Assembly (NCBI GenBank): GCA_040285825.1
Contig: JAUPSS010000001.1
Coordinates: 1,550,001 to 1,614,000 of the forward strand
Direction: 5' to 3'
Length of the DNA stretch: 64,000 nucleotides
Source: Eukaryota sp. TZLM1-RC
Taxonomy: Eukaryota > Protista > Metamonada: BaSk clade
The position numbers and the translations under genes were made by a program. The notes beneath the pieces are model-generated. The model ran no database searches. It saw nothing but the letters and a program-made list of their open reading frames with translations, and was not told the origin of the DNA. Numbering within the stretch: position 1 is the first letter of the stretch; each line of letters starts with the position of its first letter. Below are positions 2,494 through 64,000 of the stretch, one piece after another.

Positions 2494-2620
2494 TGTTATC
2501 TGTGGCTAAACGTGACCTTCCCCTTTAGGAAGGTGGATCACGTCATCTTGAGTTTAAATTGTAGTTTGCTTTTATTTTCTCTGATTTCTTATATTCTGTC
2601 CATAAACTTCTGTTTTTGTT
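2494..2620 (+). repeat. 5' LTR of family A, truncated (last ~25 bp, PBS and gag missing)
   Basis: Near-identical to 7625-7751, then jumps directly to sequence just upstream of the protease. Confidence 0.88.
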
Positions 2621-30900: not shown

Positions 30901-33468
30901 GCTGAAATCAAACCACCATTATATTGTGTCATTCAAGGTAAATCATTTGATGTCATCATTGATGGGTTAAATCTGATCTGCAAAAATGTCATTATTTCTA
31001 CTTACAAGGAATTTGTTAAGGTAAGTATTTACTATTTTGACTTGGAAATTGGTAGTTTGGAGTTAACTTCTGAACCCTTTTTTGTAGATCAATGTTTTGT
31101 TCCAGATCACGTTTCTCATGTTCAATATACAGATTTGGTTGTCAATAACGAACCATTAATTAACTTATTCGATAAAACTAGGTGTTGCCTTGTTGCACTT
31201 GGTGATTGCTATTCTAGTTTCAAAGCTGGAGAGGAGTTTACCATTGAATTTACAGAAACTTACCAAATAACATCAATTACTCTTACCACTAATTCTTCTT
31301 GTTCGGATTCCTTACAAAGCTCACCAATTAGACTTGGTAAAACCACCAATGATTTATGGAATTGTGAATCACTTTTGAATGGTTTTGATGATGCTTTAAT
31401 GTGTAGTATTGAGGTTGATTTTAGTAATGTGACCTCAATTACTTTTGAAATACTAGAAGATTTACTACTATTTGAAGTTGAAATTTATGGATACAAAACT
31501 AACAAGTGCTTGAGATCAATTGATGATTTCGTAGGAATAACAACTAGTGGAGATTTTCTGTTTATTGGTGGTTATTATGAATTTGCTGGAGAAATGTTTG
31601 AAATGTTTGGCTCAATTTACACACTGTTAGACAATACAATTGTGAGTGAAGTTATTACAGAACCCTTTACTGTCAATTATTCATTTTCTTCTTCTGATTG
31701 TTACTATTCCACGTCAATGCTCAGTGCTTTAATTGAACCTCAAAAACCACAATCTATCATTTTAGTAAATGATACAATTACTATGATTTCAAACTCATTT
31801 ATTTTAAAACTTCAATGTCGGGATTCAAACAACTTAATGGTTAATTGTTTTGAACCTAGTCAAACCAATTTAGTTAATTATTCAAGTTTCAGTTATAATC
31901 ATTATTATATTCAGTCGTTTAATTCAATTAAGTTTGATATTCAAGGTATTTATCCAGGAAATCATTCAATTCAATTTGGTATTGCAGATAAATCAAAGTT
32001 GATTTTTCTACTTCTTCAAGAATTTAAAAAGGAATTATTAGTAAATCTGCTTCAAATTCATCAATGTAATCGTTTAAACTTGTTTTATAGTAGTTGTTCC
32101 CTTATTACTCTTGAATTAACACTAATTACTCAAGATTTACTGGTCAATTATACCCAATCACTCAGTTTATATGAAGTTGATTTATCACATGATTTAATGA
32201 TTACCCACTATGTGTCAAGTTTTAATGAATTAGAAGTAACTGGTTTACCATTAGGTGAAACTGAAATACTATTCTCTCACCAATCAACACTTGCTTCAGC
32301 TATGTTTACCTTAAACGACTGTGATCCAACTAGAATAAACCTAAATAACGAGTGTCATTGTAAGCCAGGAACAGTTCTTGGTCCTGTAGGGGAATGTGAA
32401 CCTTGTCCATTGGGTTATTATTTAGATAATCCTTTGTTAGGTCAATGTATCAATTGCCCACAAGACAAAATTACTAATTCAATTGGTTCTTCAATTATTA
32501 CTGAATGTGTTTGTCCAAAATCTTCGTTTGATGATGGAAAAGGTTGCATTAACTGCCCAAAATTCAGTACTTGTGAATATGGTGAGTTAGCAAGTGTTTC
32601 AAATGGTTACAAGTTTACCCTCGAAACAGGAGCAATTTCATGTCCTTATAGGTATTCATGTAGAAATAACCAATGTCGATTTAATACAAAAGGAATTGAT
32701 TGTACTGAGTGTATTGAAGGGACCAAAAGGTATGGGTTTGTTTGTATTGGAGCAAGTGCTTTTACTTTTATAATTGGTCTTGGTCTCAATTTGGTTCTTG
32801 CTTTTTTATTGATACTCAGTGAACATTACTTGAGGTTTTCGAACAACTTTTATAACAAGGTTTTGAATCAGTTCACGCAGTCTTCACTTTCAGCATCCAC
32901 CACTCGCTCACTTGTTCAGTCTAAAGGACAAATCATTTGTCCATTGAGACTTTTGATGGTTTTGTCAGTAGTAATTAATGGTAATCTTCTTCTGATCACT
33001 GTACCTTTTTCCTTAAGTGCATCATTATTTGGTAATAGATTTGGGTTTTCGCTGTTGATTTTTTGTTTTTTGATCAATTATTATTTTTGTAGAAAAGTTC
33101 TACGACATAATTTCCCATTCAAAGACTCTTATTACTGCCACTTTTGCTTGTTTACTGGTTTTATTGGTATTTATAGTAAATTAATTGAGATTAAGCTAGA
33201 CATTGAACTGTTGTTGTTGTTTGGGGTGTCTGTGTACTGGTTTAATTCAATATGCAAGAAACAAAAAGATAATGACAGGTTTAGGTCATTAATAGTAGCA
33301 ATTTTCCTACTAATTTTATTGTATTTACCATATACAATTCAATTAATTACTCAGGCAATTGTTTTTCTTGTTTTGACATTTTATTCTGGTGACCAAAATC
33401 GTTATGTTTCTTATATAGCTTCTCTTTACAGTAGTTTATTGCTCATACTACATGTTTTTTATTCGTAG
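24958..33468 (+). CDS. Giant 2836-aa surface/membrane protein: signal peptide, RCC1 propeller, beta-helix-like region, IPT/TIG-like domains, Cys-rich GCC2/GCC3-like repeats, multi-pass TM C-terminus
   Basis: MRMRWILLFLVCLSHA signal; RCC1 repeats at ~aa 160-500; CCGTASVPCLTL followed by beta-helix-like 'N..F.N' repeats; CEPCPLGYY...CINCPQDKIT; several hydrophobic segments at the end; intact intronless 8.5-kb ORF. Confidence 0.85.
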   Translation: MRMRWILLFLVCLSHATQVYLVDAVTVGQIFLWSSPSSWTSPLQPSSTIFVDGKGMNPILVVDVVPSVYSLHLSDVTLRLKHHVVIPHTTTLDDVIVESDIGQMVNFTTTNLEVLGPCELNLISFVIKGNGKLAGILSLSQSSLLVDFGAELVIEGGSSDSFELKAWGDGRHGRTGTGYTTNSHPLLQVDTDEEFTFIAGGNEHTLAITSEGTLFSWGRNEAGCLGLDSSNDQYIPQEVDFENVVQISAGAYFGLARTQDNLVYSWGRGWYGRLGHGSYRILPDNYEPKPKQIDLLDDVIDVSAGNTHGLAVLSNGKVMAWGYNFQGELGDGTYLRRPTPREVNITEVVEKVVGCHFFSLFLTQGNNLMTTGTNDDGQLCLGHFFRRNSPEKILNSDDYKIVQVSCGYHSTFFLTKEGDVYSCGEVLGRPTDSIFRHTPGKVQGLGRVSSIGSGYDIAFAIDFNYALYSWEAGDHQASINDETRDFEVGSVYAGRYHFFIQPPPPAAISTLDNSLLKVNGTVENIAESSFTFEIEILVHSTGSLLAKNGFFVFDKRVVNAGLIKAMNDFELIFESDLNLEGGQVSSEISIENKEGNSITGFGHFKSDLINHGTIEPSGIIEVTGDLQLSDSSTILFTNQKTDNGKLIVDDTGYLGGLLEVDYSFQPVQKDFNLDLITFNSKSNEFNQILINCESFIEVTEDLFLLTAINEIIPDLNHISFISPFGLNEDCCGTASVPCLTLSKIIERMGYYGVIYFEEGEYNEINFDVGLIGVDFEFRGNEDDISISVSTSLSVAQSYLNISNIEFDLSDFTSFLIIEDSTLILENVVINSNTRIIDGFNSNVAFNNVEITSNNQIEPFIDLYLCQFTGFNSILLGEGISLYFNHSVIQMTNFLIEGQVVPSDNVLFVGNSKMDLTDIRFSIVERDFGDSNPSIIFTTSSSISISNSFLVNSDLLLLEAVTSEVVFNSLNVSNCQSSLFINTTLSSVELNNVIVNHSIGRFLLAQDTSEVVFRNVTFEKVTSDSPLIEVIDSNFFSVDFDVFNCEVYSLFDSLKSNSELIKTYLINLTLTGGNLLNIGQSYLELTQLEMVGYTFDGIPNVFTCKQQSYLINSINSTFTIIQSNLIGCLVDTILYFDLNFEDSTASFLNFLDYLALTRLLLLNSTIELNTNHSVLVRSIELDENSSISGKDKYLNLELMISELSTINDCVGTREWQIEFNFPFAELIEDFVLIHEYNSVSKNIFSSVDFLLISFKDNYAANSYLDYFEVHFSSPIIQFFHSKVLQLCSPHLSLPPTPTQGKELLLNGTNLGHDLLLISSSTINFIPDSPINHETIAVIVPPGAGCHDVEVKRSLDTIVVFMTFCFQSPSIDFAQQNPYKLEEFVVIYGNNFYDSPALVEVELQNSTFLHSLASINHTVIVFKIENICNLSFSNVPIVITIGGQVSNTYQLGMNFPTYITSSHLLNPFDEDISLTLNQDITFNTLSQCNDIELVGNVPLNWTIAGPTEFELNFDLAGVDSLQLLVQFSKNFVQLIEVPVVDFYVLPTDYICITNQICIIKVCVLFDNVDLHDYFPIGDGNILITDYEFAESGCMLINLVVKRESNEASLQLCSESLCNTLQGLPKVVTIDSLSPSLVQWEYKTTDVSITLTGENIDFYNNSLWENSFLFGGKVIDFSIQGPTSVTFTFEFTSMGNQSLQYIGFGSVVELFTINCDDFLVIVPSYFLQSELIIYSRFSQSYLELSHGNEILQISAGENSLITQKEGNSIFLNSRTVSEMIELGHISRVIKVNVSYNCSITFPHSDTYFEIKSLSKCFVKYSSTDTQIELEVFGSEVGVCVIELVVNYHESRVTKEIVFQIVEPPKLELLGDNYFVKTDNITLTALIESGFSSFNDYSLAIDNKYLAYRLTSFVENLTYYVQTIEVILTPGNLNLTKPVTFLNLELHSDLFGTMLVAELQIFDVELFTNSTVSFFEPRDVVMETNAEIKPPLYCVIQGKSFDVIIDGLNLICKNVIISTYKEFVKVSIYYFDLEIGSLELTSEPFFVDQCFVPDHVSHVQYTDLVVNNEPLINLFDKTRCCLVALGDCYSSFKAGEEFTIEFTETYQITSITLTTNSSCSDSLQSSPIRLGKTTNDLWNCESLLNGFDDALMCSIEVDFSNVTSITFEILEDLLLFEVEIYGYKTNKCLRSIDDFVGITTSGDFLFIGGYYEFAGEMFEMFGSIYTLLDNTIVSEVITEPFTVNYSFSSSDCYYSTSMLSALIEPQKPQSIILVNDTITMISNSFILKLQCRDSNNLMVNCFEPSQTNLVNYSSFSYNHYYIQSFNSIKFDIQGIYPGNHSIQFGIADKSKLIFLLLQEFKKELLVNLLQIHQCNRLNLFYSSCSLITLELTLITQDLLVNYTQSLSLYEVDLSHDLMITHYVSSFNELEVTGLPLGETEILFSHQSTLASAMFTLNDCDPTRINLNNECHCKPGTVLGPVGECEPCPLGYYLDNPLLGQCINCPQDKITNSIGSSIITECVCPKSSFDDGKGCINCPKFSTCEYGELASVSNGYKFTLETGAISCPYRYSCRNNQCRFNTKGIDCTECIEGTKRYGFVCIGASAFTFIIGLGLNLVLAFLLILSEHYLRFSNNFYNKVLNQFTQSSLSASTTRSLVQSKGQIICPLRLLMVLSVVINGNLLLITVPFSLSASLFGNRFGFSLLIFCFLINYYFCRKVLRHNFPFKDSYYCHFCLFTGFIGIYSKLIEIKLDIELLLLFGVSVYWFNSICKKQKDNDRFRSLIVAIFLLILLYLPYTIQLITQAIVFLVLTFYSGDQNRYVSYIASLYSSLLLILHVFYS

Positions 33469-36360: not shown

Positions 36361-37830
36361 TTAAATTTTTTGCTGACTATTGAAACAAACATCTGAAGTC
36401 ATTGAGGTAACAGAAGCACCTTCAATAGTTTTAATATCAAATTGGAAAGGTTTCAAATGGTCCCTTGTCTTAGTAGAAATTCTGTTAAAAATAAGAGAAG
36501 AAAGCAATCTGGTTAAAGACTCTCCAATAGCAATTGGTCTAACTCCATCAGGTTTGTTACTTTTACCTGGTTTAACTGAAACAACTAACCGGGCAGCAGT
36601 CAATTCAGGTGGGAACATAATTTAAACACATTAAATTTTGAAAATGAACGTCAATATCCTCAGAAATTTCTGGAACATTTTTACAAGCAGTTTTCAACAA
36701 ATCAAAGGAAATGCCTGAAGGACCAGCACCTTTTCCTTTTGGCAATTTAGCAATAGCATTGAATACTTCTTGATCCTGAAAAGGATTTTCGAGCCAATAT
36801 TGACAAATTGAAGGCTTACTTGGGCAAAAAATTTTAGTTGGATGAAGCGCTTTCAGTTTTTCAACAGTGTCAAGATTATTATCAGCCAAATTACCCGAAA
36901 AAATATTTTTTAAACCGCTTCCACATCTACTTCTCAGGAACAATTTTCTTGCTTGAAACGATGAACTGGCTTTACTTTTTTTCGGTTTGTAATTAATTGA
37001 TTTCTTGTACTTTTTGGCAAAGAATTTCCAAAATCTTGTTATGTTCCTTTTGTTTAACTTCAATTGGGAGGAAAAAGAACGCATTTCCCATGACAGAGGA
37101 ACAGAACTGGCAGGACTCACCTCTACAGGAATTTTTATAGGTGCACGAAGAGAATCACTTGATGACAATCAAAACAAAACAAGAGAGAGCGACCAATTGA
37201 AGAATTTGAGAGGAACTTTTTGCAAAAAGAACAATTATGGTTTAAGACAGTATCCGTATGATCAGGAGCAACAGTTTTTGGTACATGAGTTTGATCAATA
37301 TTTAAATCAAAATTAACATCATCAGCGGAACCATTGGACACAGGAGGAAGACTGAGTGCGCATGGAGTTTGTAAACTATTAACAATAGAAATATTTGTTT
37401 TCAGTCTCATTTTTTTAGTAATAACATCATTTTCTAATGTTATGATCAACCTTGCCACATTTCGAACAAGAATACCTTCTTTTTTGAAGAAGAATTTTGA
37501 GAAGAATTTCGAGCATAGCTTGAAGGGTGGGGAGAGTGGAGAAGTGAAGGAGATGAGCTTGTTCTGACTGGTAGAATCTTTGCTTGGGCGTTCCAATCAG
37601 TATCAGAGTCACTATCAGCCAAAGGCATCGTTTTGACAGAGAAACAGTACGACTTTGACGCCTTGACAGAAAGTGAAATATGAGAGGGTTGACTAAGGGA
37701 GGGAGAAAAAAACATGACTTCGAATTAAAATGGAGATTACTTGTTGGAGTTTTTTCAACGCAAATTTTAAAGAATACAAACTTCTGTCTGAAATGTCTTG
37801 AATAGCTATAAGGAAACATGATTGCCATAA
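36361..37830 (-). mobile_element. 5' part of a non-LTR element (CCHC knuckle and N-terminal RT motifs), inverted
   Basis: CSKCGKVDHNIR; AIAKLPKGKGAGPSGISFDLL; ARLVVSVKPGK...VRPIAIGESLTRL; frameshifted. Confidence 0.85.
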
Positions 37831-39075
37831 GTCGGGAGATAAACTGGATATTTCTTCTCGTAAGTTATCAAGGAATAGGCTATTTGTAGCAGCTTTTTTA
37901 GGAGGTGGAAAAAATTTTATTTTTGAATTTTTCCAATGGTTTCCTTTTGATGTTCATCTGATCCATGGTGAATCAAATTTTTATTTGAATTAACTTCAAA
38001 TTGAATTAGATAATTTGCCTAATGATATCTGGATTCAGTGTTTTTTTTTCAAAATGTTCAAGAAATTTCCACCGGATCACTTCCAAATTTACGTTTTTGC
38101 CTGAAAAAGCTTCAGCACCATTTGGCTAAATTATATGAAGGCTTGGATTATGAAGTAAGACTTGGCTTGGCTAAAACTGAACATCCCGCTTTCGGTAATT
38201 ATTTAAAGGACATTCGTGATAGTTCTGCTGCTGCTTTAGTAACTCAAATTCCTTCTGTTTATGGACTTTTGTTAAAAAACAATGAATGGCTTTTAAACAT
38301 GCGTTTTCGTTGTTTTGGCCAAATAATTTGCCCAATCATTTAACATGTAAATGTGGTAAGCCTCTTTTGTTTACTCATCTTTTGAACTGCAAACATTTCA
38401 TTACGTTTAGAAGCAAAGTGCATAATAACGTCAGGGACCAAATTTATGTAATGTACAAATCATATCGAGTAGATTCCTTTTTAGAACCGCTGTTATCAAA
38501 ATTAATTCTTGATGATCCCAATATTGATAGTACGCGTTACAACAGAGCTTCTATGGGTCTGACTAGAGGTGATCTAGTTGTTCCTGGTTTAAATGGTAGT
38601 TTTACTATTTTGGACGCCATGTCTATTGACCCTTGTAATTCCTCTAACGAACATCTCATTAACTCGAATGTAAATAATCCTCTTCTTGCAGGCGAAAAAT
38701 ATAAAATTGCTAAATATGCGAAACCCATTTCCTCGGTTAATGAAAATTCTCATGCCCAATATAATTTATGTCCATTTGTTTTTTCTTTGCTTGGATCTCT
38801 AGGTAAGGCTGCTATGGCTTTCCTCGATGATTTTGTTGTAGTTGTAAAGGAAAGAACTGGAAGAATTTTCAATCGTGTTTACTGGCAAAACAGGATTGTA
38901 TTTTCTATTTTTAAGGGAATGGTAAATCTAATTTCTGATTCACTCTCTTCTTTTGGGAAATTTTCTGAATCTTTAGCAATTAATTGTTTTGATGTAGGGG
39001 AGACAGGTTTTGAGGATGTGGAGTTTTAATTGTGTATTTTATGTTTTCATATTTCTTGTTGAATGAATAAGAGTT
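37831..39075 (+). mobile_element. 3' part of an RLE non-LTR element (zinc knuckle plus endonuclease)
   Basis: AAFLGGGKNF; CKCGKPLLFTHLLNC, RSKVHNNVRD, RGDLVVPG, KYKIAKY, WQNRIVFSIFKG; homologous to 1-1153. Confidence 0.88.
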
Positions 39076-39706: not shown

Positions 39707-40490
39707 AAGAATTAAAAACAAACATGATAAGTGCTGGAACTAGAACAGTCAACATAACTATCAATGATGATCAGCGTTTATTCTTAAGAATTAAAAACAA
39801 ACATGATAAGTGCTGGAACTAGAACAGTCAACATAACTATCAATGATGATCAGCGTTTATTCTTAAGAATTAAAAACAAACATGATAAGTGCTGGAACTG
39901 GAACAGTCAACATAACTGTCAATGATGATCAGCGTTTATTCTTAAGAATTAAAAACAAACATGATAAGTGCTGGAACTAGAACAGTCAACATAACTATCA
40001 ATGATGATCAGCGTTTATTCTTAAGAATTAAAAACAAACATGATAAGTGCTGGAACTGGAACAGTCAACATAACTGTCAATGATGATCAGCGTTTATTCT
40101 TAAGAATTAAAAACAAACATGATAAGTGCTGGAACTAGAACAGTCAACATAACTATCAATGATGATCAGCGTTTATTCTTAAGAATTAAAAACAAACATG
40201 ATAAGTGCTGGAACTGGAACAGTCAACATAACTGTCAATGATGATCAGCGTTTATTCTTAAGAATTAAAAACAAACATGATAAGTGCTGGAACTAGAACA
40301 GTCAACATAACTATCAATGATGATCAGCGTTTATTCTTAAGAATTAAAAACAAACATGATAAGTGCTTGAACTAGAACAGTCAACATAACTATCAATGAT
40401 GATCAGCGTTTATTCTTAAGAATTAAAAACAAACATGATAAGTGCTGGAACTAGAACAGTCAACATAACTATCAATGATGATCAGCGTTT
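39707..40490. repeat. 79-bp tandem array, ~10 copies, with an alternating two-variant higher-order pattern
   Basis: Unit starts at 39707, 39786, 39865 ... 40418; variants A (ACTAG/ACTATC) and B (ACTGG/ACTGTC) in the order A A B A B A B A A' A. Confidence 0.97.
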
Positions 40491-49742: not shown

Positions 49743-50841
49743 TGTTGTTGTTGAAATCAAATTAAATTAGTAGGTTTCTTTGTATTTCGACTGATGACGT
49801 GATACTCGTTTATGAATCAGTTTTATTAATAAACGCAGATTTCTCTCTCCCCCCTTCGTGTGTTCATCTGCCTAACGGCATCAATAATTATTGGCCTTTC
49901 TTATTTCAGATGACTGTTCTTTCTGTCAACCTCCCGTCTCTTTCTTCCATGAAAGTTGAAAGTGTTCTCTTGTTCCTACAACAGTGGCAGATCTATTCTT
50001 CTGTGACTTCTAAGAAAGAGCTTGTTCCAGCAAGACTCTTGGTCGATTCTTTTCTGTTAGAGTCCCTATCTCTCCAGAAATCCGACGTCTCTTCCAGTGA
50101 CGATGTTCTTCTTGGACATCTACAATCTGTCGTATCGTTCACAACGTACGAAGTTTTTAGTCTGGCTATGTCAGAACTGAATCTTGATGTCCGTATTGGT
50201 GACGTCCGAGAACGTATGTCCTGTTACCTGCGACGTTTCCTCCAGGTAAAGAGTAGGGCTTCCGGACTGAAGTTACCAGACACAGCTTTTCTGAATCGAT
50301 TTGGAATTCTTCCCGTAGGTCTTCAACGTTCTCTACTAGCGAGAATTCGAGATGATGTATTCCCAGATCTTCACTCTCTTGTCGAAACCACTACTGATGA
50401 GCTGTTAGACTGCTCTAGGGTTACCCCATGGACTCGTGGTTTCAAAACCTCAGTGAATGATGTGGAACGTACGGCTGGCACTAAAACGAGGTCCTCTTGG
50501 CGCTCTCAGGATTTAAAAAATCAATCGTGCTTCAAGTCCCACAAGCCTGGACACATCTCCCGCGATTGTCCAACTAAAATCAAACATGAGGTAAATTATG
50601 TGTGTCACACAAACGATGCACCAAAGAGTTTAACAAACCCCATATCTTCCCTCCATTGAGCCGATACTACATTTGTCCTCAGAAAAATGGGAAAAAGTAG
50701 TGTTGTTGTTGAACTCAAATTGAATTGGTAGGTTTCTTTGTATTTCGACTGATGACGTGATACTCGTTTATGAATCAGTTTTATTAATAAACGCAGATTT
50801 CTCTCTCCCCCCTTCGTGTGTTCATCTGCCTAACGGCATCA
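49743..50841 (+). mobile_element. Gag-only miniature LTR element (family C): 141-bp LTRs at 49743-49883 and 50701-50841, TSD CTTC
   Basis: LTRs TGTTG...GCATCA with 3 mismatches; PPT AAAAATGGGAAAAAGTAG; CTTC at 49739-49742 and 50842-50845; empty site AAGCTTCTGAATG visible at ~51944-51956. Confidence 0.93.
49910..50659 (+). CDS. gag: Gag-like protein (249 aa) with degenerate CCHC knuckle
   Basis: Intact ORF between the LTRs; CFKSHKPGHISRDC knuckle with the second Cys replaced by Ser; no protease, RT or IN. Confidence 0.8.
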   Translation: MTVLSVNLPSLSSMKVESVLLFLQQWQIYSSVTSKKELVPARLLVDSFLLESLSLQKSDVSSSDDVLLGHLQSVVSFTTYEVFSLAMSELNLDVRIGDVRERMSCYLRRFLQVKSRASGLKLPDTAFLNRFGILPVGLQRSLLARIRDDVFPDLHSLVETTTDELLDCSRVTPWTRGFKTSVNDVERTAGTKTRSSWRSQDLKNQSCFKSHKPGHISRDCPTKIKHEVNYVCHTNDAPKSLTNPISSLH

Positions 50842-51821
50842 CTTCTGAATGTTTAACTGAATGGAGAGGCTCTTCTGTTGTCAAACCGCCAAACCATTGA
50901 ACAGTACAGAAACTACCTGAATCAGAATTATATTCTGAGAGGATTTTCTCTATAACGTGTTTTTCAGCACTTCACACATTGTTGAAATCATCATGCCTAG
51001 AAAATTACCACAAATGACACTGTGACCGTTGTTTCATTGTTGAACGTAAATTAGTCATTTATTGATTGATGTCACGACAGTTGACTCAGCTAATATTGAT
51101 AACTGTGGACATCAAAAGTGAAGAAAACATTGGTTCGAAATGAGATCATTAGGTGTGATCATTGTGATCTTTAAGTACACAAATCGAGCAAATTTTGAGT
51201 ATATTATTAATAGTCAAAATTTGGTTTTCAAAAGATGGAGAAGAATTGTGTGGTTTAATGGTTTTAATAATTGCAACTGGAGAATCATTTGCGTGGGTTC
51301 TTGCTTCTTGGTCTTCAATGGAATTGGAAAAATAGCCAAATATTGTCTAAGCCTTATCACTTTGAAATCAGAACAATTCATGGACCTGCTGCTGTTCTTT
51401 CTTCTGATGTTTTCTTCAATTCAAATACTTCTAGTGAAATTTTTAATTTAAATTTTAAAAATTTTTCAATTGAAATTTTTCCTTTATTGCAAAACATAAA
51501 CATAAACATTTTCCTGCAGTTGAGTCCTTTCTCTAAACTTTTAAGGGAGATTATCAAAACTTTTTTATGAATGTTTTGACCTGCTTTGGTCTCTGGCTGT
51601 CAAACAAGGCGATCCATTAGGTTTTTTTGTTGCCTTAGGATGCAAAATTGGTTGAGATAAAGATAATTTATTTTCTATTCATATTATAAAAGCCTTAGGA
51701 CGCCAACACTGCTTCTTCCCTTTTTCAGAGCTAATAAACTTATATAAATATGAATCTAAACTATAACAAATAACTAAATAACTAAATAACTAAATAACTA
51801 AATCTAAACTGAGAATTAGCA

Positions 51822-54800
51822 TCACTTCCTAATTCTAGTACTGCGTCCAGGCCTCTTGCAAGGCGCAGAGTTATTGGAGGTACTCTTACGTTGACTAGTA
51901 GTACGTTTTCCAATTTTCTTGTTATTCCTACTGAACAACTTGTAAGCTTCTGAATGTTTAACTGAATGGAGAGGCTCTTCTGTTGTCTCACCGCCAAACC
52001 ATTGAACAGTAGAGAAACTACCTGAGTCAGAATTATATTCTGAGAGGATTTTCTCTATAACATGTTTCTCAGCATCGCCTGCTGCGACTGTCTTAAGAAA
52101 TTCGATATCCTGGGGATTCTCGGCGTTATAGATTTTGCAATCTTTCTTAGCAGCCATTAATTCGGTGCCAGTGGTAAGATTCTTCAATAATAAAGTAGAG
52201 TTGGAGGGATGGTCTATTACTAAAAAGGGTCCGTTCCAAGATCCATGTAATTTATTATTCTGTTTGGTTTTACGAAGGACATAGTCACCAATATTAAATA
52301 CTATAGAACGCGAATTAGTATTGTCTACTGAAGTTGGGGTATTTAATGATTGATGACGCTCTGCTTCTTCCCTTTTTTCTTGCAGACGAATATTTTTCAA
52401 TTTAATATCGTCTAATAAAGGAATAATGGAATCAAATTTTGATAAGTTTTCTAAAATGTTTGCAGGGTCCGATCATGGACTAATCGAACATACGAACATT
52501 AGTTCGTATGGGGTAAAACCTGTCTTTCTGCTTTTAGTGGAATTTATCAAAAGTTGGGATATGGGTACATAAGTAGACCAATTTCCCTAATCATAGAAAT
52601 CTATTAATAATTTCCTCAAGCATTGTAAAGCGTCTCTATGTTTACGTTCTGAAAGTCCATTACTTTCAGAGTAGTGGGGCATTGAGTTACTCGTCTCAAT
52701 AGCTAATCTGTTACACACTATCTTAAAAGTCTCATTGGCGAACTCAGGACCATTATCACTATGAATTAACATAGGTATGCCAAAAATTGCGCAAACGTTC
52801 CAAATTAAGGCATCTGCGGTCTCTAAGGCATTGAGTTCCTTTAGAGGGACTAAAATTGAATATGCAGTAAAAGAATCTACAAATACTAGCAAGTATTTAT
52901 TACCATCACTATCATTATTCAGAGGTCCAATTGTATCGACATTTAATCTAGCAAAAGGACGATCTGCCCAAAGGGAACCTGTGGAAGGTGTTTTTTGACA
53001 AGTTGGGCATCTTTTGATGTGGTTTATGAGGTCCTTTCTTATATTAGGCCAGAACAAGTCGCTTTTGGACAATTTATGTAGACTGTCGTTTTTGCTGGAA
53101 TGGCTTGATTGAACCAATCCATGTATTAATAGTAAAGCCTGTTTTCTGAGGCTTTTTGGAATTAAAATTATATTTTTATTATCTTTCCAAATTTGAGTAT
53201 TTTCATCTAGAATTGCATTCTCGAATAGAGGGTCATTGTTATTTTTGGCTATTTGTTGTTCAGATCTTATTTTAGAGAACCAGGAAAAAAAGTAAGTCTT
53301 GGTGTCTACTTGATGGGATATCTTCGAAGTCCGAATCAGAATCATCGTCTAGTGGAGGTATCTCGTAATTCGAAAGTAAAGTATCTGGTCTATTTATACT
53401 ACAGATAGAAGGAGTTCCCTCGTTTAGGTCTAAATCAATATTCCTCGATAACATATCTGCCCAGTGGTTATCATCACCTGGTTCATGGACCATATCAAAG
53501 TCGAATTCAGATAGTATAGGCAACCACCTCTTTACAATTCTGTTTTTCTCTGGGGCTGTGGCCAGGAATGCAATATTTTTGTGATCAGTGAAAATTGTTA
53601 GAAGCTTTCTAAACAACTTTCAGTTAAAATCAGAAGTATTGCGTATAATTCTTTCTGTAAAGTGGACCATTTTCTTTGTGTTTCTGTAAGTAATCTATAA
53701 TAGAACGACAAAGGTTTCACTTTCCTTTTATTCAGCGGGGTTCCTGCAGGAGAGTATGGTTCAATTTCTTGCCAAATAACACCCCCTATTGCTACATTTG
53801 ATGTGTCAGTACTTATTGATACACGCTTGCCCGGAGCTAGTAATTCAAGGGGCATGTGATTAATTATTAAATCTTTTATTTGTTTAAAATAATCATCATG
53901 ATCGTTGGTCCATTTAATTATTCTAAGTTTCCCTTTATTTAACTCGTTAATTGGAGCTATTAATTCGGAAATACCTGGAAGCCAATCTCTAATATAATTG
54001 ATGAATCCTACCAATGAGCGAACTTCTTTCACTGATTTTGGTCTAGGGATTCTCATCAAGGCTTCGATCTTTTTCTTACTAATATATCTAGTTTTGTCCT
54101 GGAAGGTGCTTCCTAAAATGTCAATAGAGTGTTGGGATGTTACGAATTTACATTTACGTAAACCTATATTTACACGTCTATTTCTGGCGCATTGGAGGAC
54201 TCTTTGTAATTTCTTATAGAATTCTTCGAACGTCGTTCTAACTATTATGATATCATCAATATATATAAAGACGCCATCAATTTGGAAAATTTCCATCATT
54301 GCGTTTTGAAATACTACTGGGATGTTCTTTAATCCGAAACAAGCTCTTTTAAACATAACTGACCTTCCAGGGATTGAGATTGATGTTTTCTCAATGTCCT
54401 TTTCAGCTACATTCATCTGCCAGAAAGCTTTTGGTAAATCAAGCGTGGCAATATAATCTGTTCCACTCAAAAATGCTAAAATTTCACTAATCCTAGGTAG
54501 ATAAGGCTCTACTGAAATCGTGTGGGCGTTAACTCCATCTTTACCGCTAAAGTCTCCAGTTAACCTGGGTTTCTTGCCGTCAGGATATATAACTAAGACA
54601 ATAGGAGAGCTGAATTTATAATTAGATTCAACTGCGTAGCCCATTTCAATCAGTTCATCAAATATTTTATTTGCTATTTCCATTTTGCTGGAGTTTAATT
54701 GTCTAGCAGGTTTATGTACTATAGCATTCTCATCTCTAAAGGGGATTGTTAGAGGATTACAATCGATTCCTTTTCTGTTTGGAGTTTCACAAAAAACATC

Positions 54801-55570
54801 GCTGAAAATTCCTAGTAGACTCGTTAATTTTAATTTATTAATATCATCATCTAATTTTATCTCACAACCAGATCTAGTTGTTTGCTCCTCAAAATCGGAA
54901 GGACTCAATGATTGGTTATCTAAGGTCCCAATCAAATGTTGAGCGATTCTTGAGTCGAATTCAGATTCTGCATTTAACAAAGTGCGGTGTTCTTTGTCTA
55001 ATCTAATGAAAAGACCATCATCCGTCTGAAGCCCAAGTGTTTTTAACATGTCTGTCCCTATTAATAATATGTTCGAACCCAGAATTATGGGAAGAGTGTG
55101 TCTATAATGTACCTGGTGCACAATGCTTCCTACGTTGAACGACAGAATACCATTTGCACTCCCTAGCGATCTACTTGATACGTTATTGGCTAATAAGAAC
55201 TCAATTGTATCATCTCTATTAATTGACATATTGCATTTGGTAGCCAAATCTTCTGTTATAACCGAACAAAACACTGCCGAATCAATAGTTCCAATCATTT
55301 TTTTATTATTTATTAATATCTCCAATCTTAAAAATGGAGAACGCTGGGATCTGATGTAATTCTCACTAACCGTAGAATTTATACCAAAAATACTATTGAT
55401 ATCAGAGCTGGGTTTGTGGAATTGTAGAGGATTCAATAAGAATTGTTGAGCTGTTGTGGAGTTGTTGACTGGGTTTCCGAATCGGCAATTAATTGATTGT
55501 GATTGATTGCGTTGATTTGTTTCCGATTGGGAAAGTACCTGTGTTTCTGACCCTGTTGCTGAAACGGTCG
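51822..55570 (-). pseudogene. pol: Pol of family B (PR-RT-RH-IN-chromo), several frameshifts
   Basis: ORFs 53598-55754, 53272-53616, 52587-53345 and 51822-52400 carry consecutive pol motifs. Confidence 0.9.
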
Positions 55571-57642
55571 ATCCGTCTGTGAAAGGTCGTGCTCGAACTA
55601 GCTGACACGTTCTCAGAAGGGGATGATATTGATGATGTTTCCTCTTGTGTGTTAAAATAATAAAAAGGTATATACTGACCTCTGCCTTCATGTCCTCTAA
55701 AATGGCCATTTCGACCCCTACCTCTAAACCTAGATACACGTCTACCACGGCCACCTCGACCCCTGACTACACTGCCACTTCTCGCAGCCTGATCAGCCTC
55801 GCCGATCTTAAACCTGAGTTCGTTAGGTACCTTGCTTCTGGTACAATGGGGGTCTTTACATTCAAAAACCGTGTGACCAGTAGGGTTGTTTCCTTCGGTG
55901 ACGTTACAAAATGTACAAAACTTAGAATTATCCCGTTCATGTCTTTCTGGAACATATTTGTTTTGGGGAGTTCCTTTAGATCCGCCTCCCGAGCGACGTT
56001 TAGCACCTGAATTAGATGGAGTTACCCCTCTAGAGTAAGTTTTCATGGTCGAAAGGCCTAATAGAATATCTTCGTCTCTTTCAGCTTGTTTCCTCAGAAG
56101 TTCCATGATGTGCCTGTTTCTTGTCGTTTGGCACCAAGCTAAAAAGTGTCTTCTGGTGGTCGAAATCAGGTTTGACAAAGTTGTACCTGTTGAAGGGTCC
56201 CAGAAATCTCCTCTTGTCCAATGGCTTGCCAGCTCCTTGGTAATAATATATTTGTCTATACCCAAGAGAAAGTATTCTGCAATGAGGGCGGGTGAGAGGT
56301 TTATTAAACCGCTGGTTCCCCTAATTGATGCAGATATAGAGTGATCAACCATGTAAGTGGTCATCCTCAGGACGTCTCCAAAATCTTCGATGAACCTACC
56401 AAATTCATTGTCCGCATCCATTTTGTCGTGGATGTTTCTCCAATTTATACAAGGTTTCGCTAGGGTAGAGCAAGCCTCATGATATGAGGTAAATTGTGTC
56501 CTGAGTAGCAGAAAAACCATTAGATCTGCGTCAGAGAAGTCCGGTCTCAGAAGTCCTTGGCCTTGCCAACTAGATATGAGCTGGGGGTCAACCATGCTTG
56601 ATAAGCCGGACGGACAAGTACTTATCATCATACTTTTAAATAAGTCGTAATGATGAATAGGAGGTCCCAGACGTTTTGTCAGTTCTGGGTCGATCCTTAA
56701 AAGTGGCTGCTTCATGTCCCTATCAATTTCTTCTCTGATGTGAGATGGGAGAGATGATAAGAGCTCAGGGGTAATCTGGGTCTTTCCTTCACCAAAAATC
56801 TGGGTTGCTATCAACATAGCACGAAACCAATCAGATTGACGAGGGGCTTGAAAGCTCCTATTAGCTATCTTGTGCCCGTATTTATCCCATGCTTGAAACT
56901 TGAGAAGAAAGGAGGCGAAAGACATCTTGTTGAGTGGGTATTTCTCGGATAGGTGAGGAGCTTTGTATTCAGCTGACCTAGGCCGAGTGTCCACATGTCT
57001 TTGAAGACTACTCGCTATACTCATGTCCAATATATTTCTTGAAGCTTGGAGGTCTTCCAAACGGAGAGGCTCCTCAGAAGAAACTCTTCTACGAAGGGGT
57101 TGAGGAGGAGGTGTTTCATCTAAACTAGGTCCGCTAAACTCGACTTCGTCTTCTGATGCACTTCTGAGCATAGGTTGGGAGGAACTTGATGGTTCCTGAA
57201 CCACTCTGGTAGGTCTGTTTACTCGTTTTGTCATGTCTACTGTTGGGATGTGATCAGGGAGTACATCAATAGAACAGACTTGTACCGGTTGCTCTTTTTC
57301 TGCTATTATGGGGGCGATTACTGGAAATTTAGGTCTCTGGTGGAGCTCTGTTGATTGATCGCCCGTGACCATGAATCTGAACTTCTTCTTCCTTGTTGTA
57401 GCTTCCCCGAATTGCTGAATAAAGTTATTTGGGCGGCACCTAAATGTGGATACGCTTGAACATTCCGTAAGTATATTATTTAGGGCGTCCGCGTCAAAGA
57501 AGTCGCTGACGGGTTCCAACTTGCTTGGATTTATGCTGTCTGCTTGTTCCATATATTTTCTGAAACAAGTAGGAGCCCCGTCCGTTACCTCTGAGAAGTT
57601 ATGGATGATCGTATCAAAGTACGAGTCCATCCATGCCGGCAA
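55489..57642 (-). CDS. gag: Large atypical Gag of family B (CX2CX10HX4C knuckle, RGRG-rich tail)
   Basis: Lies between the 5' LTR and the protease; CTFCNVTEGNNPTGHTVFEC; RGRGGRGRRVSRFRGRGR. Confidence 0.7.
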   Translation of the reverse strand: MPAWMDSYFDTIIHNFSEVTDGAPTCFRKYMEQADSINPSKLEPVSDFFDADALNNILTECSSVSTFRCRPNNFIQQFGEATTRKKKFRFMVTGDQSTELHQRPKFPVIAPIIAEKEQPVQVCSIDVLPDHIPTVDMTKRVNRPTRVVQEPSSSSQPMLRSASEDEVEFSGPSLDETPPPQPLRRRVSSEEPLRLEDLQASRNILDMSIASSLQRHVDTRPRSAEYKAPHLSEKYPLNKMSFASFLLKFQAWDKYGHKIANRSFQAPRQSDWFRAMLIATQIFGEGKTQITPELLSSLPSHIREEIDRDMKQPLLRIDPELTKRLGPPIHHYDLFKSMMISTCPSGLSSMVDPQLISSWQGQGLLRPDFSDADLMVFLLLRTQFTSYHEACSTLAKPCINWRNIHDKMDADNEFGRFIEDFGDVLRMTTYMVDHSISASIRGTSGLINLSPALIAEYFLLGIDKYIITKELASHWTRGDFWDPSTGTTLSNLISTTRRHFLAWCQTTRNRHIMELLRKQAERDEDILLGLSTMKTYSRGVTPSNSGAKRRSGGGSKGTPQNKYVPERHERDNSKFCTFCNVTEGNNPTGHTVFECKDPHCTRSKVPNELRFKIGEADQAARSGSVVRGRGGRGRRVSRFRGRGRNGHFRGHEGRGQYIPFYYFNTQEETSSISSPSENVSASSSTTFHRRIDRFSNRVRNTGTFPIGNKSTQSITIN

Positions 57643-58890
57643 TTTGTTTCCAGGATTACGTCGGTATCGGTTCTACTCCTTTGTTCGATAGCTGAGAACC
57701 TGATCCTTTTTCCGAATTGATCCAAGTGAATGGCTTCCCAACCAGGTCTGTCTTTGATTGGTTTTGCCAGGATCACATGGATTTCTTTGTCCATGCTGGT
57801 TAACCTAGGACGGCGTTCTGCCCCACGTCCGTAGGTTTCTCTACTCCGGGCGTCCAAAGCGTTAATTAGCTCTCTTCTCTAGCTTTGAGGGAATTCGTAG
57901 ACTCTATTAGGGTTCCCTTTCAGGCCCAGAGTCTAGAATCCCACATTTCTACCAGATTTTATCATTTGTTTCCAAAGGGGAGGGAGCTGCTCAAACAAAC
58001 AGTAATCTGTAGGTTCGAGGTGGGATTCCGCGTACTTCATTATTTGTTGACGAAGTTCTTTCTCTTTGTCGTCCATTTCTTCTAAAACGGACTGACGTTC
58101 TTGGTAGTCATTCAGAACGGACGAAGTTTCTGAACTTGACTCAACATTTTTGTCTTCAGGTGAGGAGGGTGGTGGTCCCGTTCATGAAACCTTTTCTGGA
58201 TTGTTGGACTTGAAAGAGGCTGGAGGTGGTTCCGTGCTTGGTCCCATTGGTTTCTCTTGAGGGAAAGGGGAGCGGAGGGTGGTCTCGAGCCCGAATCCTC
58301 ACTCTTTGCTTCTTCTCCTGTTGTTGTAAATGTGTTATATGCATCTCTGTCGTGCTGTTGCATGGAAATTTTAAAAGAGTCAGTGTCCTGGCGAGGAAAG
58401 ACTGACATGATATCTGCTGAAGATATCCTCTGTTTGATAGCTGTCAGATGTGTAAGCGGTATACCTGGTATAAACCTAAATGACCAATAATTATTGATGC
58501 CGTAGGTTGGAAAAGTGGTTAGGATAAAGCTTATTTATTTTCTATTCATAATATAAAAGCCTAAGGGCGCCAACAATATTGTTGGATAACACTTGGAAGC
58601 TATAATGAATTTTTCATAAATTACATGTTACAGGTCAGTTAAATAACTAACTAATAGAGGTTGCTAAAGGTGTATTTAAAAATAATGAAGCCTTTGTTGT
58701 TGTTCATTACTTGACATAATTAGCATAATACATTGGTAATTTGATTTCTATTCAGTTTTCATTAATCAGTCATCAGAAATATAAAATCAGTCACATGAGT
58801 ATTTAATTAGAAAGATTAAGTGTAAATGACTATAGCAAAATCCGACACAATTTATTAAATCAAAACCTATAAAAACAATTGAAAATCCAC

Positions 58891-60432: not shown

Positions 60433-60451
60433 AAAATGAGTAATCTAAATC

Positions 60452-60563
60452 TGTGGTTTTAATTTGCAATGCTCACATTCGTCAAGCATCATTCAAACTT
60501 ATTCCAAGAACTTTCATTCTTGGTGAGATCATCCACAGACGTTCTAGAATCCTCGAATAATTG
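60452..60563 (-). repeat. ~111-bp segment downstream of the Fanzor remnant, repeated in inverted orientation at 62438-62548; candidate omegaRNA or element end
   Basis: CAATTATTCGAGGATTCTAG.ACGTCTGTGGA.GA.CTCACCAAG.ATGAAAGTT.TTGGAATAAGTT...GATGCTTGA...AAAACCACA is shared by both copies. Confidence 0.6.
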
Positions 60564-60617
60564 GCCACCAATCTCAGTGAGCCCATTTCTCCCCTAAAAC
60601 AATACGTAGCCTTGAAG

Positions 60618-60965
60618 CTAGTTTCTTTGTGGTCTCTGGAACGCTTTTGGTCTTGTTCCATAGTAGTGCTCACTAATTGCAATTTCTAGCTGATTTAGTG
60701 ATGTAGAAATATCTCTAGACCAAACTTGATTACAATCCGGACAACTGAAATAGATGTTGTGAACTTTAACTTCACCATCAACTTCTCTATAGATCTTTTG
60801 GTGTAGCATCTTGCAGCACTTCACCTTTGCAGATGTCATATATTCATCTCCGATCTTCACATTAGCAAATGAACATTGTAACAACTTGAGAAACGCCTTA
60901 CGTGGAGTTTTCACTTTTTGACGTGATGTACCACCATCTCCATTGCCAAACCACACCTTTACTTC
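60618..60965 (-). pseudogene. C-terminal remnant of a Fanzor/TnpB-family RNA-guided nuclease (RuvC-II, zinc finger, RuvC-III)
   Basis: VWFGNG...TPRKAFLKLL...IGDEYMTSAKVKCC...SCPDCNQVWSRDISTSLN...GTRPKAFQR; in-frame stop just upstream; no RuvC-I recognised. Confidence 0.75.
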
Positions 60966-62437
60966 TCAAATTCCATGGATCTTTGTGGAACTGTTGGCTT
61001 TTCTATTATAGCGATTATAGGTTTCGTTTAGTGCGCTCACACATTGACTATAAAACATTGAATCCCATAAAATAGACTAACAAAAGACAATCTGTAGAGG
61101 CACTGCTGGCTATTCTTGAGTCTAAACTTGAGCCTATTGCAGATCGTCCATCCCAAGCTGTGCCAACAACTTCTGCTGTGTCACCCCTTTCAGCTGCAAT
61201 TCTTGTCTTGAAACTAGACATCTGAATACTTATTATTACGTTGTCTCTCTACTTCGCCCTCTTCACCCTCTTTCTACTCATCTTTCCTCCATAGAAGATG
61301 GTCCTCCTGGCTTCACTTGTATTACCATCAGTATTATCGTTTGTTCACTCTCTACGAATCAACTCACTCCAATCTTAATCTACTCCATTTTAACCTACTG
61401 CTGATATACATGAACTTCTGAAGTCTAATGAGCAGAAGATTTTTGAACTTAATGAATTCCAATTGGAACTGCATTGAAGACACTTGTAATGTTAGTCAAC
61501 ATGGCTTCCTTGCAGAGATTGATTTTGACTAATTTCATATTAATGTAGTGTGATACGATAATAAGTCTGAAGACGTCCACGCTGCTATGAGTGAAACCTA
61601 TCCCCTTGAGTTCAGGTTCGGACTCTTGAGAAAGAAGATTTTCTGGTTAATGACCTATTTCTGAACCTTCACTGTTTTGAATGTGCGTGGTTGATAATAA
61701 TTTGTGTAAATACAAGTGAATAATATTTATATAATAATCTATATAATAATATATAATATTAGTGACGGTAGTATTATAGGTTATTTAAATTGTAACTTAA
61801 AGTGCTAATACTCACCACATAACTAATTGTTCCAAAATAAAATATTATCGATTTATGTTTTATTATAGTGTCGTTCAAGTGTTGGTAAAAAGAATAGTGT
61901 TGGTGAAAGAAGTGGTGTGGTGAAAGAGGATTTTATAATTAAGGTGAAGATTGAGGAAGATTTACCTGTTCAATGAATAGAATCTAATACTCCTCTTTTA
62001 AAATTAACACAGTAAAGTTAATAATTCTAGGATCTGACTGGTACATACCAGCTTCAAGTTTCAGCTGCTTCGATAATTTCAAATTATTGTCTTGAATATA
62101 ATTGCAAATAAAGGGCAACTGACTCAACCACATCTAAAAAATAGACTAAACAGTTGGTGAAAGAAAAAATTTCTCCAATATGCAACCAAAGTGAAAACCA
62201 CAGTTGCCATTGTAGTATTCCATTTTGCCAATAAACACAGATTGCAAAGTCTTTCTCATTGAATCAAAGTCTCAGAAATCACACATAACATTAATTGATT
62301 ACATTTGTATATGAAATAATCAAAAAATGGCAGAAAATCGTGAAGTGATTGACTCTTGATTGACTCTTGCAAATTGCATATAAAATGGAAAGGATGGAAT
62401 GGTTTTTCAAAAGTCCAAGTTTAAAGTTGACTCACGT

Positions 62438-62548
62438 CAATTATTCGAGGATTCTAGCACGTCTGTGGACGAACTCACCAAGGATGAAAGTTGTTGGAAT
62501 AAGTTGAATGATGCTTGAAGAAAGTATGCATTTCAAATGAAAACCACA
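62438..62548 (+). repeat. Second copy of the Fanzor-downstream segment
   Basis: Reverse-complement match to 60452-60563. Confidence 0.8.
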
Positions 62549-63133
62549 AACAATAGTAATTTGTTTGGGTCCCGTCGAAACAGAGAGGGAGAGAGGAAGT
62601 GAGAATTGTTGAGATAGCTGAATGGGAAGAGAACAAGAGGTAAATGAAGGAGAAGGAAACTGAAAAAAAACATAGAGTTTAGACGGAGTAACAGCGACAA
62701 GAACAGCTAGAGGGTAAATCGAGCTGATGTTGATGACCACTAATAGAGATACAGTGGATAGGCATTTGATGCCATTGTGAAAATTAGCAATCAATTTAAA
62801 ATTGCAATCAGCATGTCAGACATCGTGTCAGACAGCGAGATTATCTTGACTATTCCCATTCTTCTAACATCATGCAGCAAAAGAAGAACAAGGATAACGA
62901 GGTTACGGACTCAGTTCCCACCTCCTCCTTCAACCTGTTGTTCAAAGAACAGCCGAGTACTTCTTCCCGAACTCTTCAGTCGGGAACAGTCATCCTGTTT
63001 TACAGGAATAAACGGAAGCTAAGAGCCTCGATTTCTTATAGAAATCGTCGTTCTGATTCTTCCGTGGGGGGCAGAGTATTGCACTTTTTTGAGTCATCAT
63101 GTGAGTCATGATTTGGGTGCTGTTGAATCAGCC

Positions 63134-64000
63134 ATGGTGCTAATCACCTTGGATATGGGATGCTCTTCTTCTTCGTGTTTTGTTTTGAATTGTTATTTTG
63201 ATGTTATTGAGTTTGTTGTTTTTCATGGTTTAGCTATTTGTACTGTAGATATGGGATGTTGTTCTGGTTTGTGTTTTGTTTTACATTGTTGTTACTTTGA
63301 TGTTTTTGATTTTGTTGATGTTTTTGGTTTAAGTACTTGTACTTTGAATATGGGATGTTTTTCTTGTTTGTGTTTTGTTTTGAATTGTTATTTTGATGTT
63401 ATTGAGTTTGTTGTTTTTAATGGTTTAGCTATTTGTACTGTAGATATGGGATGTTGTTCTGGTTTGTGTTTTGCTTTACATTGTTGTTACTTTGATGTTT
63501 TTGATATTGTTGATGTTTTTGGTTTAACTACTTGTACTTTGAATATTGGATGTTTTTCTTGTTTGTGTTTTGTTTTGAATTGTTGTCTTGATGTTTTTGG
63601 GTTTTTTTTTCGTGGTTTACGTACAAAGTTCTGTAGATGTGGGATGTTTCTTTTGTATATGTTTTGTTTTACATAGTTGTTTTGATGTTTATGAGTTTGT
63701 TCATTTTTGTGGTTTAGATTCTTGCACTTTAGATATGGGATGTTGTGTCTTAAATTGTTATTTTGATAATGTTGAGTTTGATTATTATGTTTATTATTTA
63801 TCTTTTCAATCCAGAAGCTGCCAACATCTTCTATCAACAAACCCATTTATTGTTGATTTAACAATTGATGGAGATGTTGAAGCAAATCCTGGTCCCAGAA
63901 AGAGAAGATCTAATTTTGAATCAACTCCTCCATCAAAAATTATTAGAAATGCGATTTTTGACCAACAAACATCAATGCGTAAGCTGAAAAAACAACAAAA
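63134..64000 (+). CDS. Cys/Phe-rich repeat polypeptide followed by a 2A (StopGo) peptide and a basic NLS-like downstream product; one frameshift near 63625; runs off the window
   Basis: Frame 63627-64000 is stop-free and continues the repeat into NPFIVDLTIDGDVEANPG|PRKRRSNFESTPPSK...; DVEANPGP at 63873-63896. Confidence 0.65.
63150..63790 (+). repeat. Coding tandem repeat, ~7 units of 96/99 bp (alternating, 195-bp higher-order unit)
   Basis: ATATGGGATG-like anchors at 63153, 63249, 63348, 63444, 63543, 63637 and 63733; plus frame reads DMGC...CFVL.C.YFDV..F...GL..CT. Confidence 0.9.

Follow-up and report, generated by a model that had tools for sequence, protein, structure and literature searches.

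The window, by which we mean the whole 64,000-nucleotide stretch of DNA analysed here, comes from Eukaryota sp. TZLM1-RC. This organism and its counterpart TZLM3-RCL are, we take it, isolates of Skoliomonas, a free-living metamonad. Repeat-rich genomes are described in Skoliomonas (PMC11316075). The window is eukaryotic, since by Pfam it carries genes for PheRS-alpha, for RCC1-repeat and RhoGAP-MORN proteins, and for a Ty3-type reverse transcriptase (RT). Three stretches (2–1153, 36605–39029 and 39707–40490), without a Pfam match above cut-off, are presumably remnants resembling RLE-type non-LTR retrotransposons; after one of them comes a tandem array of a 79-bp unit, with ~10 copies that are 98% identical. 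Several remnants of Ty3-like LTR retrotransposons, with Pfam matches to protease, RT and RNase H, occupy parts of 2606–7630 and 49766–57672. On the minus strand, 24958–33468 is an intronless ORF of 2836 amino acids that, read by eye, begins signal-like, contains RCC1-like repeats and a Cys-rich stretch, and ends in a multi-pass hydrophobic region.

The subject of this article lies at the far end of the window, where the plus frame from 63843 reads, in translation, PFIVDLTIDGDVEANPGP-RKRRS. The core, DVEANPGP, is at 63873–63896, exactly where the sequence-only reading of this DNA had reported it. Together with the hexapeptide upstream, DLTIDG, which is of the ‘DLTxDG’ class, it forms a 2A or ‘StopGo’-like peptide (63843–63896, plus strand), identified by its motif and by a conservation island in four subfamilies. 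Following PMC12846837, we define the 2A core as (D/G/C/N)(V/I)ExNPGP, a pattern that DVEANPGP satisfies in an open frame. The stricter pattern D(V/I)ExNPGP occurs once in a six-frame scan of the window, at what is also its only NPGP; the number expected from composition, over the window's six frames, is 3.9e-5. The frame runs open from 63579 through the end of the window and translates as PFIVDLTIDGDVEANPGPRKRRS. It had been described earlier as stop-free to the window end, which is correct, and as starting at ~63627, which is not. The peptide had also been called viral in type, aptly so, for DLTxDG is among the upstream classes known to be highly active (PMC12846837), although the window's 2A has Phe where that class favours Trp. 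The predicted skip site falls between Gly 63891–63893 and Pro 63894–63896. From that Pro, the start of the predicted released product (63894–64000, plus strand) carries basic clusters, a possible NLS, and is represented in the window's gene model, P0002, and in paralogues P0033, P0010, P0012 and P0035. Past 64000, the product reaches the ExoI motif of a DEDDy exonuclease (P0002) and, in paralogues, Fanzor1.

The protein family downstream of the 2A

The 66 residues around the motif match P0002 and seven paralogues, all from Eukaryota sp. TZLM1-RC, at 68–97% identity. An exhaustive protein search returned 15 proteins at E ≤ 0.001, of which 10 are from TZLM1-RC and one (P0023, 36%) is from TZLM3-RCL. 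Four of the 15 align on the 2A alone, and two of these four are picornavirus-like polyproteins. The family comprises at least 21 records in TZLM1-RC and at least 53 in TZLM3-RCL (clusters of 30, 19 and 4), the analysis covering 15 members of each of the two large TZLM3-RCL clusters. There are four subfamilies: A, to which the window belongs, and B in TZLM1-RC, and C and D in TZLM3-RCL. Identity between pairs is 61% over 171 residues for A–B, 53% for C–D, and 26–27% for A–C and A–D; no alignment was obtained for B–C or B–D (the subfamily B sequence is short). No relatives were found among 591 (alignment A4) and 41 (P0033) pattern matches in metagenomes.

Members share one domain order: leader, 2A, linker, DEDDy 3′–5′ exonuclease and Fanzor1. 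The C-terminal part of P0036 matches the Fanzor1 proteins SpuFz1 (E 2.7e-13), PpFz1 (1.7e-11) and GtFz1 (1.3e-6), and its N-terminal part matches the exonuclease region of Pol delta; beside this comparison of P0036 with Fanzor1 and Pol delta, the family profile gives E 4.1e-16 and 5.4e-9. Pfam finds PF03104, the PolB proofreading domain, in paralogues above cut-off (E 2.4e-16 and 2.7e-15). For the C-terminal part, the language-model neighbours (0.97) are clusters of DUF8286, drawn from Mucoromycota and giant viruses; for the N-terminal part they are PF03104 clusters (0.95). In Foldseek, the P0062 and P0033 models, both of them weak (mean pLDDT 55 and 42, respectively), have Fanzor1 structures as their top matches, followed by PolB chains. 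P0033, of subfamily A, is 93.5% identical to the window over 63630–63998 and aligns collinearly with P0062 across 888 columns (E 2e-69). We consider the leader–2A–exonuclease–Fanzor1 architecture secure, with high confidence; the Fanzor part of the window's own copy we infer from its paralogues.

The first reading had proposed that the 2A could mark the start of a mobile element not yet described, or belong to an endogenous virus or a host gene, had noted 2A-like motifs in some non-LTR retrotransposons, and had asked what domains lie past 64000. P0002, which extends 147 residues beyond the window and into CFDLET, and its paralogues supply the answer: a DEDDy exonuclease and then Fanzor1, with no RT, helicase or capsid. 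FDLET had raised the idea of a protein-primed or replicative PolB, as in a Polinton or virus, and this we reject: no polymerase domain follows. Pfam finds none in full-length P0036 and P0062, and PDB polymerase matches are restricted to profile positions 228–385. Neither an APE endonuclease nor an RT occurs downstream of the 2A in the family proteins, and the family ORF has no viral replicase, helicase or capsid domain. The first of the proposals has thus fared well, for the 2A heads a multicopy exonuclease–Fanzor1 family kept in four subfamilies; the others do not agree with what lies downstream.

In favour of a virus or retrotransposon, the best non-family matches of the 2A stretch are picornavirus-like polyproteins that contain several 2As; and in favour of two neighbouring genes merged by gene prediction, the full-length family sequences are automatic gene models. 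The polyprotein matches, however, overlap only ~21–27 residues, those of the 2A; no RT, capsid, helicase or polymerase domain comes after; and no family relatives are present among 600 matches in viral contigs, nor any exact match to the 2A-coding DNA. The exonuclease–Fanzor junction, furthermore, is collinear in three subfamilies and begins where the stand-alone Fanzor1 protein, P0038, begins: P0033 aligns to the Fanzor-like P0038 from residue 7 of the latter, immediately after ExoIII. It is therefore most improbable that the locus is an endogenous virus, a non-LTR retrotransposon, a host gene or a merger of neighbours. Two unnamed proteins, P0020 and P0022, have four and three tandem 2A-like motifs, respectively, and no Pfam domain.

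The catalytic residues of both enzymes can be recognized. ExoI (DxE), ExoII (D) and ExoIII (YxxxD) motifs are present in subfamilies A, C and D, and the full-length relatives keep D-E-D-D; by these residues and PF03104, the exonuclease is of the DEDDy, PolB type. DEDD domains include RNases. In another reading, the 2A would be functional and the exonuclease would act on RNA or on the ends of the element itself (omegaRNA maturation, or a transposition intermediate), and not on a target break; the DEDDh nucleases that accompany P and piggyBac transposons (PMC3627910) lend themselves to the same idea. Against it, the nearest families are the proofreading domains of B-family DNA polymerases, and the enzyme is DEDDy rather than DEDDh. 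We think such a role very unlikely.

The RuvC triad is D-E-N in all 17 of the C and D proteins that reach the segment; the A and B proteins analysed do not extend so far, P0033 ending just before RuvC. The Fanzor1 pattern D ... (T/S)S ... zinc finger ... RD is likewise present in C and D, with the Asn as a known active variant of RD. The RuvC-III residue is Asn in C and D family proteins, and Asp in five stand-alone relatives. We do not read the Asn as a sign of a dead RuvC, because GtFz1 is naturally D-E-N and cuts DNA; SpuFz1 D606N, moreover, is more active than the wild type (PMC11423790).

The window's own copy looks damaged: it aligns to P0033 in three frames. One frameshift in the leader is due to an extra G in the G6 run at 63066–63071, and contigs of other copies are without one G. 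The other is a net loss of two bases near 63602–63630, by the T9 run at 63602–63610, where other copies in the run contigs carry insertions. Gene model P0002 ends 147 codons beyond 64000, before ExoII. Closure of the frame shortly after the window had been named at the outset as grounds for doubting the 2A; it occurs, but in the window's copy alone. Within the family, this copy has probably decayed or been mis-assembled, and since both leader lesions touch homopolymers, assembly error is possible.

Conservation of the 2A and diversity of its leaders

The island LTxxGD(V/I)(E/H)xNPGP is kept in all four subfamilies, the earlier reading having proposed that the 2A be given up if homologous copies failed to conserve it. 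Among four representatives, one per subfamily, identity averages 0.69 per pair over the last 15 residues up to the Pro, and 0.58 when the NPGP anchor is left out. In the flanks the mean falls to 0.10 (30 residues before the 2A) and 0.04 (25 residues after), in a comparison that is ungapped and anchored on NPGP and that therefore understates the likeness of A and B downstream. Eight 2A positions are invariant across subfamilies whose enzymes share 26–27% identity and whose flanks, on both sides, are randomised. Because the island is conserved above its flanks among such diverged proteins, the 2A is, as judged from these alignments, under constraint.

The expanded core is intact in 23 of the 26 proteins analysed that show the 2A site. 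Fourteen have the strict core, seven have His at p14 and two have Asn at p12; the remaining three cores are damaged, and all three belong to subfamily A (3 of its 12 proteins). The gene model of P0070, in subfamily D, is without the motif. His at p14 is the state of subfamily C; in A and D, Phe stands where Trp is usual. In lysate, p12 Asn and p14 His are natural variants with ~90% or more activity, and the DLTxDG class is near 100% active, although changes upstream may abolish activity (PMC12846837). The viral dataset of the same paper contains DLTIDGDVE nine times, DGDVEANPGP 15 times and GDVHKNPGP three times; the core of the Perina nuda 2A is GDVESNPGP (PMC8623073). With upstream motif and core both matching variants that are active in reporters, the family's 2A is likely to make the ribosome skip at Gly–Pro.

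Might the 2A instead be an inactive relic, kept by descent or as a structural linker, with the enzyme made from an ATG upstream (e.g. 63735) or at the exonuclease? An in-frame ATG does occur 46 codons before the core, several gene models begin at the exonuclease Met, and a quarter of the subfamily A cores are the damaged ones just mentioned. Some 2A-like motifs of retrotransposons, too, proved inactive when tested (PMC3708506). Descent alone, however, sits poorly with eight positions held invariant between randomised flanks, and the changes that are tolerated, V/I and E/H, are those known to keep activity (PMC12846837). We rate this explanation as unlikely.

What follows the Pro is less constant. 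The basic stretch PRKRRS, put forward before as a possible NLS, is present in two of the four subfamilies, A and B; in C and D, the basic cluster after the Pro is missing. What precedes the 2A varies more. In subfamily A, the leader is strongly hydrophobic. The 5′ part of its ORF (62872–63148, plus strand) is common, by tblastn, to paralogues at up to 95%, and the rest is a Cys-rich tandem repeat of 96/99 bp (63149–63751, plus strand), one unit of which is 94 bp here. One broken unit excepted, unit lengths are multiples of three. The leader of subfamily B is host-like, with 20-residue repeats; subfamily C has at least four different leader sequences and subfamily D has one. The leader of A has no relation to those of B, C and D, nor have these to one another, although, as these are gene-model predictions, some differences may be wrongly called introns or exons. 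P0036 carries a subfamily D leader on a subfamily C enzyme, the switch occurring just upstream of the 2A. In P0011, of subfamily B, the host-like leader is 340 residues long, has 20-residue repeats at its end and is fused in frame to the 2A; this is possibly a captured host ORF, or a join made by the gene model.

The hydrophobic, Cys-rich repeat protein recognized in the first reading is therefore real as a repeat, now defined by its 96/99-bp units, but it is not a single ORF in this copy. A functional product is unlikely, given that the repeat is confined to one subfamily, that the other leaders are unrelated to it, and that pN ≥ pS in four of four same-length pairs of repeat units (a weak test, ungapped and with few sites). 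For the last reason we set aside a selected Cys-rich protein; coding by the minus strand of the repeat is rejected on its 5–9 stops per frame and the lack of a Pfam match. All of this would fit a leader that is kept open but is otherwise unselected, disposable or exchangeable.

A different use for the leader can be conceived, in which the 2A acts as a throttle: skipping would be partial, the leader-fused form would be held at membranes or degraded, and the small pool of free nuclear enzyme would limit harm to the host. The hydrophobicity of the subfamily A leader would suit this, as would a 2A without the favoured Trp, and 2A-like peptides are described that bring about dual targeting (PMC4981915) or reduced protein abundance (10.64898/2026.06.17.732966). 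Against it, the subfamilies have unrelated leaders and the units of A have pN ≥ pS, so that no shared targeting signal is evident. We regard it as improbable.

A Fanzor1 remnant and a 112-bp repeat

Upstream of the leader are further traces of Fanzor1. A C-terminal remnant on the minus strand (60618–60965) comprises RuvC-II (DEYMTS), a zinc ribbon and RuvC-III (SRD). It is matched by Pfam (Cas12f1-like_TNB, E 7.9e-4, below gathering) and by the family profile (iE 4.5e-6), and best by subfamily D, with 38 bits vs 30 for the best stand-alone protein; its membership of the 2A family is putative. The remnant keeps the RuvC E and D, and the RuvC-III D contrasts with the N of the C and D exonuclease–Fanzors. 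Exact look-up of four versions of the remnant found none. Over the same interval, the word depth of a contig from run X1 is ~nine times that measured at the unique junction next to the other repeat copy (62438–62548).

Just 3′ of the remnant is a 112-bp repeat (60452–60563, minus strand), and an inverted copy, 89% identical, lies upstream of the leader (62438–62548, plus strand). Both fold better than shuffles (z -3.1 for 60437–60640 on the minus strand; z -2.9 for the inverted copy), and their 3′ flanks differ. The repeat is a candidate omegaRNA scaffold or element end; its position matches that of omegaRNA loci as described for SpuFz1 (PMC10432273). The copy at 60452–60563 ends ~20 nt before the likely ATG of the PheRS-alpha gene, and so, were it an omegaRNA scaffold, the guide would derive from the 5′ flank of that gene.

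Between the inverted copy and the leader is a repeat-derived, non-coding stretch (62549–62871, plus strand) that is present in many variant contigs of runs X1 and X2 and is possibly the 5′ end of the element. In these runs, which come from one sample, contigs join the 3′ region of the Fanzor to the 112-bp repeat, and one X2 contig continues from the repeat through 62549–62688. Such joins suggest that copies lie head to tail or that the element has direct terminal repeats, but they are also compatible with an inversion or an assembly join. A plain element bounded by terminal inverted repeats, 60452–62548, is doubtful, for other copies join Fanzor end, repeat and 62549–62688 in one direction. 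An inversion allele, or an assembly join, is possibly behind the arrangement seen here. No transposase match was found in eight small ORFs of 61051–63846, and no target duplication, inverted-repeat or other defined ends in the window and run contigs, where the joints are ambiguous.

Proposed mechanism and comparison with known systems

We propose that the 2A of a multicopy, likely mobile exonuclease–Fanzor1 family frees a Pro-started enzyme from whatever leader precedes it, and that guided cutting and end trimming by this enzyme aid the spread of the element. We put the probability of this reading at about 0.62; skipping, RNA guiding, end trimming and mobility are the parts of it that we infer. 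The ribosome would skip the Gly–Pro bond and so release the exonuclease–Fanzor protein, and the freed protein would enter the nucleus, in subfamilies A and B by way of its basic clusters; many Fanzors carry an NLS (PMC10530073). It would then load an omegaRNA from the 3′ end of the element, and RuvC would cut matching DNA. At the break, trimming of 3′ ends by the fused exonuclease would prevent simple rejoining, and repair would then copy or restore the element, as in homing. T4 intron homing offers an analogy, for 3′–5′ exonucleases, including the proofreading domain of the T4 PolB, affect its efficiency (PMC2988022). As no transposase was found, movement would depend on a transposase in trans or on gene conversion.

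A bolder version of this reading, one that we put forward tentatively and hold to be rather unlikely, dispenses with the transposase altogether. The element would be RNA-guided and self-spreading, StopGo would be a universal adapter by which any open upstream sequence (the tandem repeat, a captured host exon or the ORF of another element) could supply translation while the 2A frees an intact exonuclease–Fanzor, and repair of the guided break, trimmed by the proofreading-type exonuclease, would copy the element in. If true, this would be a natural gene trap and gene drive in one, and an evolved, exonuclease-coupled, eukaryotic RNA-guided nuclease.

What appears to be new is the combination of a Fanzor1 element, an exonuclease naturally fused to it and a StopGo signal that is conserved, a layout that we did not find in the literature searched. 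To our knowledge, nearly all descriptions of StopGo come from RNA viruses and non-LTR retrotransposons, plus a few genes of animals. The open-access literature searched contained no exonuclease–Fanzor fusion, no 2A in a Fanzor or DNA transposon, no earlier case of StopGo in a DNA-level RNA-guided element or a metamonad, and no paper testing a 2A in a metamonad. In the excerpts of five Fanzor texts (PMC3627910, PMC10432273, PMC10530073, PMC11423790 and 10.1101/2023.08.09.552727) the word ‘exonuclease’ is absent and no fusion is described, and ‘Fanzor’ is absent from those of the 2A surveys searched and of PMC11316075. Neither the window peptide nor either organism label was found among the supplement entries of 2A surveys that cover eukaryotes. 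The role of the exonuclease bears on how Fanzors help their elements to spread, and the intact copies P0062, P0046 and P0047 suit tests of it in an RNA-guided selfish element. The four diverged natural 2As, for their part, probe StopGo on a deep-branching ribosome.

The family's closest likeness is to the Fanzor1 proteins of eukaryotic DNA transposons (SpuFz1, PpFz1 and GtFz1; PDB 8GKH, 9CF0 and 9CER). The bodies are collinear, and RuvC-I DPG, the relocated RuvC-II Glu, the zinc ribbon and RuvC-III are common to both; the D-E-N triad of GtFz1 is that of the C and D proteins. Like Fanzor1 elements, the family is multicopy, with many partial copies, and a structured repeat follows a Fanzor remnant on its 3′ side. 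It differs from known Fanzor1 in its ~260–340 extra N-terminal residues, a PolB-type exonuclease, and in the 2A and variable leader before them. The 2As of APE-type non-LTR retrotransposons (L1Tc, Ingi, CR1, L2, Crack and Rex1; PMC3708506) are likewise near the N-terminus of a single long ORF; as in the family, they hold a fixed place ahead of enzymatic domains, and decayed copies occur. Unlike these elements, the family has no APE or RT, its cargo is an RNA-guided DNA nuclease, and its upstream motif is the viral DLTxDG. Viral DLTxDG StopGo peptides (motif 4 of PMC12846837; avihepatovirus and iflavirus type) belong to the same upstream class, but the family's 2A belongs to a repeat in protist nuclear DNA and has Phe for Trp in A and D. 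The DEDDh accessory nucleases of P and piggyBac (cited in PMC3627910) also put a DEDD nuclease on a eukaryotic DNA element; the family's is DEDDy and PolB-like instead, and fused to Fanzor1. In engineered T5 exonuclease–SpuFz1 (PMC13434818) and TREX2–Cas9, finally, an exonuclease is tethered to an RNA-guided nuclease, as here. Fanzor1 is a genome-editing scaffold that engineers have provided with exonucleases, and the family's D-E-N active site is the state that raises SpuFz1 activity (PMC11423790). Evolution seems to have produced such a fusion in the family by itself; unlike the engineered proteins it is natural, and it arose long enough ago for divergence to reach 26% identity.
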